From: Hydrolagus affinis
Lineage: Eukaryota
NCBI GenBank assembly: GCA_012026655.1
Contig: JAAILG010001282.1
Coordinates: forward strand, 1-64,000
Direction of reading: 5' to 3'
Length of the DNA: 64,000 nucleotides
A program made the position numbers and the translations under genes. Shown piece after piece: positions 2,181 through 43,714 of this stretch (position 1 is its first letter; each line of letters begins with the position of its first letter). The notes below the pieces were generated by a model that saw nothing but the letters and a program-made list of their open reading frames with translations, was not told the DNA's origin and made no database searches.

Positions 2181-2517
2181 TATTACGTCTTCGAGACATC
2201 TCAAAGCGCTACACTGTAAAGTGAATTGGTGGTATATTTTGTGGGCGAAACACGGCAGTCAATTGCGTACAGCAGTTTCCCACAAACAATTGTGGATTGA
2301 GTGACCAAATTATTATTATTATTATTATTTTCTGAAGCAATTATTACATCTGGAAAAGCAATGCACCAATCGACTAACCAACCAGGTTCCTACTTACTAC
2401 TCGGTAAACAGAGGCATGTGGAGTAAGGAAACTTGCCCAACGTTTAGCCCTGACGGGAATCAAACCCAGTTTCTCGATTGCAAGGCGAGTGCTCTAACCA
2501 CTGAGCTACAGGACTTC
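2181..2517 (-). mobile_element. tRNA-headed Deu-type SINE, long form (with ~60-bp internal module)
   Basis: The rc begins AAGTCCTGTAGCTCAGTGGTTAGAGCACTCGCC (A box) and GGGTTTGATTCCC (B box), then GGGCAAGTTTCCTTACTCCAC, the CTGTTTACCGAGTAGTAAGTAGGAACCTGG module and the shared 3' body. Confidence 0.9.
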
Positions 2518-39584: not shown

Positions 39585-39660
39585 AGAACATAGGAAAGGA
39601 GTCGGCCATTCAGCCTCTTTTGCCTGTTCCGCCATTCTATTAGATCATGGCTGATCTGTG
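39585..39660 (-). mobile_element. CR1 3' end
   Basis: AGAACATAGGAAAGGAGTCGGCCATTCAGCC...AGATCATGGCTGATCT, same family as 41612-42137. Confidence 0.8.
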
Positions 39661-39779: not shown

Positions 39780-39986
39780 AAGGTAGCTTGGTTCGGCAAA
39801 TTCATAGATTGTTTCAGCTGTCAAAAAGCCTCCATAGTCACTTTGTTTCAACAATATTGGAGCTCCATCAAATGCAAGGATCATACTAAGATAACTCCGT
39901 TATAAGGTATTCTAGTTTATCATTGATCTATTTATAGTGTGGGTGATTTTTTTCACAAAATAGATATATTTATTTGTTGATATATA

Positions 39987-40588
39987 CAGGTATCCCTCCC
40001 CAACCGGGGGGGATACATTCCTGAAAACCTCCGTGGTTAGTAAAACCGTGGTTTGAAAATGCAGGGCCCTATGGGAAACATGGGGTAAGTTTGCTTGTCC
40101 TTGAACTAAACACAAAAAAATTCATGTTATTTACCTAAATCCTAATGATGATGGGGGAGGTGGTGTTGCATGCTGTTACATGGAAGAGGGGCCCTGCGCA
40201 CCCTCTTCCTCTGCCTCCTCCTCCAGATCATAAATCACCGACGAGTGCGAGGTGGGGGGATGTAGAGAAGATGGTGTGGTGGGTGACACCGAGGGGGTGG
40301 ATGTGGAGAAGGTGGTGTGGTGGGTGACACCAAGGTGGTGGATGCAGAGAAGCGACATCGTGGCTGGTTGATTGCGACATCGCAACTGGATCCTAGTGCC
40401 AAACGCTAGCACAAAAACAATATCGTGGCTGGTTGATGCAACTGGGCGCTAGCACCAAATGCTAGTGTTAGTGTTAAAACCCGTGGATACGCAAAATTCA
40501 CTGCCGCGGTTGACAAAGGTTGTCGCAGAGAGGCAACCGCGGATACGTGATAGAAAAAAATGTGGTTGGGGGGGGTGTACCCGCACTG
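39987..40588. mobile_element. Tigger/MER2-like MITE nested in the Tx1 3' UTR
   Basis: TA at 39985-39986 and 40589-40590; ends CAGGTATCCCTCCCCAACC / CAGTGCGGGTACACCCCCCCCAACC (rc); GGGGGATACATTCC and CCGYGGATAC subterminal motifs. Removing it restores colinearity with 42850-42968. Confidence 0.82.
40256..40352. repeat. About 41-bp tandem repeat (about 2.3 units) inside the MITE
   Basis: GGATGTAGAGAAGATGGTGTGGTGGGTGACACCGAGGGGGT repeated with few changes. Confidence 0.85.
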
Positions 40589-41611
40589 TATTTAGGTTTA
40601 TCTCAGACAGTATAAAACACACAAAAAAACTACACAACATCTTGTTATCCTGGTGCAGGACACAACAGATCCGGTCACTTTGCGGGGCCCAGGTACAAGG
40701 TGGGTTTTGTACCCACTCCCTATACCATCCTCATACATTTTTGGGACACTCTTTGTTACATCTTGAGCATCCTTCTATACATTTTTTTGGGACACTCACT
40801 CTAAGACAGTCAGGAATCACCCTTGTGTGCACTACAATCATGTTCGCGCCCGCGCACACCCTGACAATGCGCTCATGCCACTTTCGGATGGTGTCCCTGT
40901 GTGCACTGTACACACACATGTTTATCCAAACACACACCAGGAAACCTCGCAAACACAAATGCGGTGGGCTAGTCCCTTTTCTGCCTTTCTCCTTTCACAG
41001 GACGGTGAGCCTTTACCACACTGGGATGGCAGGCAGACATATATGCATTTTAGGGCTGCTCTTTCTTACACCTTGAGCATCCCTCTGCATATTTTTGTGG
41101 TTACACACATGTTTATTCACAGTTTTGGATGAGCTAGTGGGATACCCAGTGAGCGTGCCCTGGTGTTTCTCTATCACTGGTAGGGACCTTGGCTCATGGG
41201 GATGTGGCGCCAATGTGAAGCATGGCTAGCTCAGTGGAGCTGGCTGGGATCAGGCCCCATCTGGCTTTTGCTGCAATTGAGCTTAGCTTCATTGTGACCC
41301 TCAGTAAGTAATCCCTAAGCCTAACGTGTGCGAACCTGATGGAGGACTTCCCCATCGCCTCGTTCCGCTGGAAGAACGCTAAGTTTCAGGAGCCACGGGG
41401 CCTCCTTCACAGAGTTGATGGATTTTTCTGAGCAACTCAATGTGGGTCGATTCCCGGGAAGAGACCATACAGCACTGAGAGCCGTGACAGCGGGTCTCCA
41501 AGGATGAACCACGAAAGCAGCCATTCTATCAATTTCCTTTGCATGACAACACTCCAGGAAGAAATGATCCACGGTCTCCAATGATGGCTGGACAAGTCTC
41601 CAACTGTGCAT

Positions 41612-42137
41612 AAGAACATAAGAATAAGGAGCAGGAATAGGCTATTCGGCCCCTCGAGCCTTCCCCGCCATTCAATAAGATCATGGCTGATCTTCTAATC
41701 TAACTCCATCTGCCTGCCTTATCCCCATATCCCTTAATCCCTTTATCAATAAAAAATCTATCAATTTCAGTCTTGAATATGTTCAAGGACTGAGCATTTA
41801 CAACTTTTTTGGGTAGAGAATTCCATAGATTCATACCCTCTGTGTGAAGAAGTGTTTCCTCAACTCTGTGCAAAAAGGCTGACCCTTAATCGTAAAACAG
41901 TGACCCCTAGTTATAGTTCCGCCAACCAGAGGAAACAGTCTCTCACTGTCTACTCTGTCATGTCCCTTAATAATCTTATAGTTTCTATAAGATCACCTCT
42001 AATTCTTCTATATTCTAGAGATTATAGGCCTAGTTTACTCAACCCATCCTCACAGTTCAACCCCCTCATCCCAGGAACCAACGGAGTGAAGGTACACTGC
42101 ACCCCCTCTAAGACGAGTACGTCCTTTCTCAAATAAG
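41612..42137 (-). mobile_element. CR1 3' fragment nested in Tx1 ORF2
   Basis: (CATAAGAA)n tail, GGAGCAGGAATAGGCTATTCGGCCCCTCGAGCC, GGTAGAGAATTCCATAGATTCA and ATAAGATCACCTCT (rc: RGDL); GCAT at both junctions (41608-41611, 42138-42141). Confidence 0.9.
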
Positions 42138-42841
42138 GCATGAAAGCCCTGGGGGAGAAGACCCTTTTCATTGCCACCCTTATCCTGATGGTTGTTGGAG
42201 GTGTTGATAGTGTTGTGCCAGATGTGGGTGGCGGTCACCACAGGGTACCTCCCAATCGGGTCTGCTGTCTCCCGTTTTCTAACCGTTTCAACTGCTTGCT
42301 GCACGGACCACTCAGTGATTGTGCCGTTGTATGCGATGATGCTCTTCAGAAATTTCCCTAGATAGAACAGATGTTTCGTCTCCAACTGTGTGGACGTTTA
42401 AACTCAGTTCAGCCAGACCCATAGTTCTCAGCTCCAGGTACAGGTAGAAGCCCGGCACATAGCGGCATTTGTTGCTGGCATAGCGGGGCTCCAGGCACAG
42501 CTGTAGGCAGCAGCACACAAAGGTGGCCATGAGGATCTTCTCTGGGGTGTTGTGCATCGTGTTTCTATGGACACAGTCCATCTTGAACCCGCAGATCAGG
42601 TGGAAAACTGCTCTGGTGACTGCAACAACGTTATTCCTCGTCAAAGGCCAGACTTGGCCACCTACAGTAACACAGCGAGCACCTCACACTTTATCACCAG
42701 GTTTTTCCCGGTGATGGACAGCGAGCGCTGGTGCCACGTCCCCAGTTTCTTCCTCATTACATGAAGATATTCCTCACAGCTTTTTTGGCATGCCTCGGCA
42801 GCCCCGAACCAGATGCCGAGAACGTTTTTATAGTGCGGGAG

Positions 42842-42969
42842 TTTATTTAAAAACAAAATATATATGTTTATTTGTTGATATATATTTACAGTATCAGTAG
42901 CAAACCCATTACAGAAAAAAAAGACCCAGCATGTTATTATCCCGTTGCAGAATGCAACAGATCTGGCCT
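42842..42969 (-). mobile_element. Second, very short (about 130 bp) Tx1 3' end
   Basis: ACAAAATATATATGTTTATTTGTTGATATATA and TTATCCCGTTGCAGAATGCAACAGATCTGG align with 39955-39986 plus 40591-40674; flanked by the 15-mers at 42827-42841 and 42970-42984. Confidence 0.8.
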
Positions 42970-43123
42970 TTTATAGTGCTGGTGTACTGTGGACCCCGGC
43001 AATACCAGAAACCTGGTACAATGTGTTCCTGACCTACAAAATGTCCCACCGCTGGGTTGTGAGTTCACAGCTGACTTCATGAGTATTGCGTCTCTTGCAT
43101 GTTTACATATGGAGGGAACATCT

Positions 43124-43192
43124 CTGACATCACTTCCTGCACGGCATACAGGAACCAGCGCTGATGCTGGTTCAGGCAGGAAGCGATGTCAG
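43124..43192. repeat. Nested inverted repeat / hairpin
   Basis: CTGACATCACTTCCTGC pairs with GCAGGAAGCGATGTCAG (16/17); inner GAACCAGC/GCTGGTTC is a perfect 8-bp stem. Confidence 0.8.
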
Positions 43193-43714
43193 TATGACGC
43201 TCACAGGAAGTGACGTGAGGAATGCTGTGCTGACTCACATGGCAGATTATTTGTGGGGTTTCATTTTAACACTGGGGATCTGTGTTAGAGTTGTCAAGTA
43301 TTAAGTAATTTTTTAAGCCATTGTGAAGCGCTCTGAGATGCCGCCCGGCTGCATTAATGCAAGTTGTTACTGTTATTATCGTAAATAAATAATCTTAACA
43401 TTTGATATCGACAGGACGTGCCAAAGTGCTTCACAGGATATACTATAAAGTGTATTGATTGTGTGTTTTGTAGACGAATACTTTACAAAATACTTACACC
43501 AGCTCCATCCTAATGGATAAAGCTATTATTATTATCACATCATTATTGTAACATTTGTCTTAGAAGCCTAACGTTAGAGTTAAACCTGTGCTATTATCTC
43601 TTGTGGGCATAGCCACAGTTATTCACTCGGTAAACACTTCCACTGCTGTAACAGGACAATTCCCCTGCCTTGCTTTATGATGACTCAGGGACATTTGATG
43701 GCTCTAACCCTAGG

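Follow-up and report, generated by a model that had tools for sequence, protein, structure and literature searches.

Two 3' ends of one type of retrotransposon, lying in the same orientation and bracketed by three near-identical 15-mers, occupy positions 39931-42984 of a 64,000-nt stretch of Hydrolagus affinis DNA (the window; assembly GCA_012026655.1, contig JAAILG010001282.1, positions 1 to 64,000). Does such an array record an element that recognizes a particular sequence and struck it twice, or can it be explained by one event, or by later rearrangement, of a copy without site specificity? The original prediction took the first course and proposed two independent Tx1 insertions by a candidate sequence-specific family. 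The array itself is a real, old and dead stack with a known layout, and we weighed the relationship of its two copies, the flanks of their relatives elsewhere and the routes by which it may have been built.

Layout and decay of the array

The three 15-mers (T1, T2 and T3) are found where they had been described, at 39931-39945, 42827-42841 and 42970-42984, each with a single mismatch to the inferred consensus, TTTATAGTGCGGGTG, and with differences at 2 of 15 positions in every pairwise comparison. At position 42980 the window has T and the orthologous contigs of runs X12 and X7 have G, making T3 exactly TTTATAGTGCGGGTG in those runs; the T1 junction as read in X7 (loose end at 42853) carries one further change. 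Within the window only three of ~128,000 places reach 14/15 to the consensus, and none stands at 13/15. With up to three mismatches allowed, seven matches are found against 1.37 expected, a number reached in 0 of 100 shuffles, and the chance that two unrelated junctions match at 13/15 or better is ~3e-10.

Both elements have - strand orientation, and their tails read as T-rich runs at 39946 and 42842. The order along that strand is T3, a 128-bp stub with its A tail, T2, a long copy with its A tail, and T1; both copies thus point the same way, with a target copy separating them and a further one flanking the array on either side. The marks of TPRT by a non-LTR retrotransposon are present, namely 3' A-rich tails, 5' truncation and 15-bp repeats at all junctions. 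The reading of the 15-mers as TSDs and the target-element-target-element-target layout thus hold, and the 15-mer does not belong to the 3' terminus of the element itself, since other copies end without it. The features of the locus, with the evidence for each, are:

39839..39896, + strand: left flank, decayed 3' end of the window's abundant SINE-like repeat (matches within the window)
39931..39945, - strand: target copy T1, 3' TSD of the long copy (sequence comparison; junction also read in run X7)
39946..39986, - strand: long copy, short A tail and last 3' UTR bases (36/42 identical to the stub end)
39987..40588, no strand: later MITE insertion, CAG...CTG, with TA duplication (boundaries from sequence; imperfect terminal inverted repeat)
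40589..41600, - strand: long copy, 3' UTR and broken C-terminal end of ORF2 (stub match, six-frame translation)
41605..42138, - strand, approximate ends: later CR1-like 3' fragment splitting ORF2 (tail match, frames)
42139..42826, - strand: long copy, broken ORF2 segment, 5'-truncated (relatives align to 42820)
42827..42841, - strand: target copy T2, between long copy and stub (sequence comparison)
42842..42969, - strand: 128-bp 3' stub with short A tail, same family as the long copy (98/120 aligned bases identical)
42970..42984, - strand: target copy T3, 5' TSD (sequence comparison; equal to the consensus in runs X12 and X7)
42985..43120, no strand: right flank, single-copy at 80% or more (contig coverage)

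The long copy had been described as 2.9 kb, which is correct for its span (39946-42826, 2881 bp); only ~1.75 kb of this belongs to the element, the rest being the MITE and the CR1-like piece. The MITE, which we take to be of the Tc1/mariner/pogo-like class, has a terminal inverted repeat equalled in 1 of 500 shuffles, and both the stub and the relatives run uninterrupted where it sits in the long copy. The second insertion, presumably CR1-like, matches another copy at 39597-39657 with its tail (79%), and no TSD was found around its approximate ends, 41605 and 42138. Beyond the MITE, the long copy matches the stub again at 40619-40674 (77% over 56 bases), and its terminus at 39946-39986 is common to 21 contigs from other loci. 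At the other end, relatives align up to 42820 and then continue, in loose ends behind this position, into upstream ORF2 that is absent from the window. Two minor repeats were also noted, a 58-bp direct repeat (79%) at 40733-40790 and 41043-41100, 310 bp apart inside the 3' UTR of the long copy, and a 41-bp tandem repeat of 2.5 copies within the MITE at 40248-40352.

The element is probably a member of the Tx1 clade, a label that derives from motifs in the six-frame translation. The broken frame in the long copy carries what we take to be motifs of the C-terminal half of an L1/Tx1-type ORF2, namely LGIWF...W..R.LSI.GK.LVI and a C-terminal Cys/His knuckle. The RT core has been lost from these copies through 5' truncation, and the APE-type endonuclease region at the ORF2 N-terminus is likewise absent. 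The ORF2 peptides, as short, decayed queries against mostly prokaryotic libraries, gave no meaningful match in a homologue search or in Pfam, NCBIfam, PDB and Atlas, the Atlas matches being to unnamed hypothetical clusters only. Protein scans were negative in viral contigs and yielded, in bacterial genomes, no more than three matches of 20 residues that are due to chance, and DNA patterns of the family end had no match in metagenome or viral contigs.

The stretch is present, whole or in part, in 12 of the 14 public runs listed (three organisms and a fish gut metagenome). An orthologous contig from X12 covers 42640-43120 in one piece with 12 differences from the window, and contigs from X7 and X6 are near-identical to the window across T2, X7 also containing the T1 junction. 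No empty or one-copy allele was seen among the public-run contigs compared; run X11 (share 0.18) has no contig on the right flank and is thus uninformative on this point.

Both 5' junctions lie where the element resembles the target. The ORF2 of a relative (X12 record 5) aligns without gaps over 42803-42838 (30/36), passing through 12 bases of T2, and continues in frame into upstream ORF2 past 42838; these 12 bases are in register with the P-D-Y-I/K codons that the element itself has at the truncation point of the long copy. Compared by hand, T2 agrees with T1 and T3 at 13/15 positions and with the ORF2 consensuses of the family's loose ends at 6-7/15. T2, being closer to T1 and T3 than to family ORF2, is thus a target copy, and its likeness to ORF2 is microhomology. 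Similarly, the 5' end of the stub falls where the 3' UTR of the long copy resembles the target, with a 4-base gap. Microhomology at 5'-truncated junctions has been described for R1, R2 and L1, usually of 1-5 nt in R1 and R2 (PMC2718515, PMC2912911).

Relationship of the two copies and the flanks of their relatives

The 3' UTRs of the two copies had been called clearly diverged, and diverged they are: the stub and the end of the long copy are identical at 98 of 120 bases (82%), with a further 21 gap columns. This does not show two families. In ORF2, other copies differ from the long copy by 16-22 of 117 bases (eight X7 and X12 records spanning 42640-42756), so that an identity of 82% is about that of any two old copies and is no evidence for separate origins. 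In addition, the stub (42947) and the long copy (40655) share a G where 13 of 14 other contigs have A (X12 6/7, X7 3/3, X11 2/2 and X5 2/2, with denominators from depth sums). Judged on these sequence comparisons, the stub and the long copy are probably not from independent families.

The shared G, thin evidence since it is a single site, can be read in two ways. On the one hand it is what one source RNA or a duplication would leave; on the other, it implies that the sampled relatives may belong to another subfamily, which weakens any negative result from their flanks. Toward the terminus, from 42850-42851 on, the last bases of the stub depart from the long copy and agree with other genomic copies, and this resemblance lends slight weight against the stub having been copied from the long copy. 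The tails are similar in length (7-8 bases) and differ in their last bases. Independent insertions, as claimed earlier, would account for two copies that are 5'-truncated at different points and that both have a tail and a target copy to themselves, but the shared rare base weighs against them and no one-copy allele was seen.

If the family were specific for the 15-mer, other copies should carry it directly after the oligo-A. In place of a genome-wide BLASTN census we used the assembled contigs of five public runs in all, and for the flank test aligned those of four runs to 42803-42888 at 80% likeness. This yielded 26 contigs: three from this locus across T2, one from its T1 junction, one from the ORF2 of the relative described above, and 21 representing 3' ends from other loci, among which a locus may be represented in more than one run. 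The alignments of all 21 stop short of crossing the T2 15-mer, a single one reaching its last five bases. We dropped alignment depth as a measure of specificity, because the X7 contig of the T1 junction also broke at the tail, so that only the letters of the loose ends count. In that same contig, which serves as a positive control, the loose-end letters show the 15-mer plainly.

Among the loose ends listed, eight single-contig rows of 3' flank represent seven distinct other loci. The 15-mer is present in 0 of these 7 readable flanks, which are also unlike each other, and the predicted enrichment after the oligo-A is accordingly not seen. For this sample from the loose ends listed, the 95% upper bound is 35%, and the chance of 0/7 would be 0.008 if half of the copies were on target. 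Four X12 rows in the same listed set, each merging two contigs, agree at only 0.63-0.73, as unrelated flanks would; in three of these four pairs one member is also a single-contig row, and the partner, deduced by hand, misfits the 15-mer (the letters of the fourth pair are not readable). Strict specificity, of the kind known from Tx1L, Keno and R1, is thus excluded for the sampled relatives, and a preference of up to ~35% is compatible with them. In PMC4494074 a family counts as target-preferring when one sequence type makes up >20% of flanks, a level that lies within the 35% bound from the loose ends listed. The proposal of a sequence-specific family is therefore not supported and, with 0 of 7 other loci carrying the 15-mer among the loose ends listed, partly contradicted.

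A small target-specific subfamily may have been missed by the sample, because the shared base suggests that the relatives sampled are of another subfamily; we regard it as improbable, though far from negligible. The other flanks do offer a weak hint of a shared short motif, chosen post hoc: among the loose ends listed, 5-6 of 11 flanks (seven read, one by alignment only and three deduced by hand) contain GG in the five bases that precede the tail, against a background of 0.20 (p 0.01-0.05).

Formation of the array

We consider it about an even call that two 5'-truncated copies from one small L1/Tx1-type subfamily entered at the same nick, the second into the target regenerated by the first. 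The endonuclease would nick the + strand after ...GGGTG, and the resulting end would prime reverse transcription on the A tail; a cut in the second strand 15 nt away would produce the 15-bp duplication. In keeping with the resemblances observed, each 5' end may then have been joined where the element resembles the target, at the ORF2 P-D-Y codons in the long copy and at the 3' UTR stretch in the stub, after which the rebuilt target would be struck again. As the sampled relatives lack the 15-mer, the preference for the site would have to be short and degenerate, or else a property of a minor subfamily. About half of the weight that we place on two insertions goes to the strict version in a minor subfamily, and the remainder to a short, degenerate preference for which this site is a good match. 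The difficulty is that a double hit demands a strong preference. With assumed genome size and copy number (300-1000 copies), a preference of 8 bits gives 0.001-0.02 expected double sites, and ~16 bits are needed for 0.4-4; the sampled flanks carry far less information than ~16 bits. The G shared by 42947 and 40655 also counts against two insertions, as a single event or a duplication explains it just as well. So do the 0 of 7 other flanks with the 15-mer among the loose ends listed, and the failure to find a multicopy host for the target or an empty allele in the contigs compared.

The array could instead stem from one event with re-priming, which we think doubtful. The cDNA of the long copy would join the target overhang and copy 15 nt, so that its 3' end becomes the original primer end again; the RT would restart on an A tail, either that of the same RNA or that of a sister molecule, make 128 nt, and join and copy the target once more. 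Such a course requires no site specificity and predicts unrelated flanks elsewhere. It also predicts the same nick, the same 15-bp duplication and a stub on the 5' side, as well as a common source, in line with the shared G, and equal age, in line with the 82% identity. R2 proteins have been described as jumping from one RNA template to further ones and as giving head-to-tail products (PMC11371274). However, template jumping as such does not place a target copy between units, the additional steps of re-priming are our inference, and no description of a target copy between template-jump units was found in the literature searched. The two tails, moreover, differ in their last bases, and the shared-base evidence is one site. 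A somewhat fuller version, in which a non-specific L1/Tx1-type LINE built a single-event stack by re-priming and target-like stretches of 10-12 nt steered the 5' joins, strikes us as a shade more doubtful.

A rearrangement at the DNA level, after one insertion and before that of the MITE, is unlikely. A template switch between the 15-bp TSDs during repair or replication might have copied the target and 128 bp of the long-copy end, or the whole unit might have been duplicated and then mostly deleted. Either route accommodates the rare base shared by both copies, the similar tails of 7-8 bases, a stub 5' junction on target-like sequence in the long copy, and a divergence that fits decay from one sequence. 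Yet the duplication needs two precise switches on short homologies, the last bases of the stub are nearer to other genomic copies than to the long copy, and the source is 2.9 kb away, making simple slippage insufficient. Least credible of all, and largely refuted already, is that the middle 15-mer is the element's own ORF2 and the array a chance or nested one: the in-frame alignment of the relative through 12/15 bases of T2 speaks for it, but T2 is far closer to T1 and T3 than to family ORF2, there is no ORF2 beyond T3, no family contig covers 42980-43120, and T1 stays unexplained.

TSD-separated stacks are already known in print for R1, SINEU-3 and loosely specific elements. In crocodilians, tandems of SINEU-3, which accompanies Tx1-Mar, sandwich a 16-bp TSD, and Mariner-N4_AMi is the one host in the flanks of 313 of the 347 SINEU-3 copies (PMC4494074). 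The present locus resembles the Tx1-Mar/SINEU-3 system in being vertebrate and probably Tx1-type, in having a TSD close to ~16 bp and tandems around one TSD, and in consisting of old, decayed copies; unlike SINEU-3, with its single host, 0 of 7 other loci share the target among the loose ends listed here and a host repeat was not found. In Drosophila, R1 tandems have a 14-bp TSD between their units and arise by insertion into the 5' TSD (PMC2718515). As with R1, the copies here are TSD-separated and have microhomology at truncated 5' junctions, whereas R1 is specific to 28S rDNA with microhomologies of 1-5 nt, and the site studied here is single-copy with an imperfect target-like stretch of ~12 nt.

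A double insertion needs only site preference and a TSD, with dimers at the best-matching sites, according to bioRxiv 10.1101/158386. The jockey and P dimers described there share with our array a TSD inside the junction, differing 5' truncations and no strict specificity. In that account, jockey and P are young, high-activity families; the family here is old and apparently of low copy number, which makes chance double hits harder than for jockey and P. Xenopus laevis Tx1L is probably of the same clade as our element and likewise has a nick that is not at an L1-type TTTT/AA site, but its cuts are almost all made at a single site in the DNA transposon Tx1D (PMC1950540), a stringency not seen here. 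In a literature search that lay outside Repbase and subscription journals, no title on shark Tx1 targets was found, and the 15-mer was absent from the retrotransposon literature covered, its core appearing only in two unrelated papers.

At present the array stands as one old, dead locus with a known layout. If a small subfamily truly recognizes the 15-mer, it would be a new target for the Tx1 clade, whose endonucleases are studied as natural site-specific nickases. If the array stems from a single event or a local duplication, arrays often read as specificity would need a flank census first; and if single-event re-priming is true, target-element-target-element-target arrays are no proof of site specificity.

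Flanking DNA and the search for a host repeat

The window consists of eukaryotic DNA rich in repeats, among them SINE-like ones derived from tRNA. The left flank at 39839-39896 matches three other copies of the SINE-like repeat in the window at 79-85% over 27-39 bases. The right flank (42985-43120) has no other match within the window and is covered solely by the orthologous contig in X12, X7 and X5, and by none in X11. No multicopy host for the target was found in Rfam, the window or the run contigs, among which a host older than 80% identity would escape. There is no Rfam match within 39-44 kb, and we rejected an RNA gene as host, no RNA gene being near the site. An LTR with a TATA box, suggested by TATAAAT on the - strand at T1, found no support, as TG..CA ends with a TSD occur at chance (2 seen, 1.4 expected). 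Nor is there support for the right flank being the end of a DNA transposon, which 381 of 500 shuffles equal, or for a sister ORF2 as host, there being no ORF2 beyond T3 or T1.

Some minor features of the surroundings were recorded. ARAGORN and Rfam identify a tRNA-Ala(TGC)-like head of the SINE-like repeat at 2445-2515 (- strand), and four weaker tRNA-like heads lie elsewhere in the window. One relative, seen in an X6 loose end before 42855, seems to have landed in the reverse-strand tail of the SINE-like repeat that is abundant in the window; a SINE-like tail is likewise near the site studied here, at a distance of 35-45 bp. At its right end, TA included (40578-40592, - strand), the MITE agrees with the 15-mer at 11/15 positions and with its 12-base core at 11/12, the only match to this core in the window besides the three target copies; the likeness may be due to chance, or the target may be related to the terminus of this MITE family. 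Finally, 135-240 bp from the site, positions 43119-43224 contain nested inverted repeats (21 nt at 81% and 17 nt at 94%) and words that we take to be ETS/CRE-like; this segment may represent the palindromic core of a MITE, or else an enhancer.
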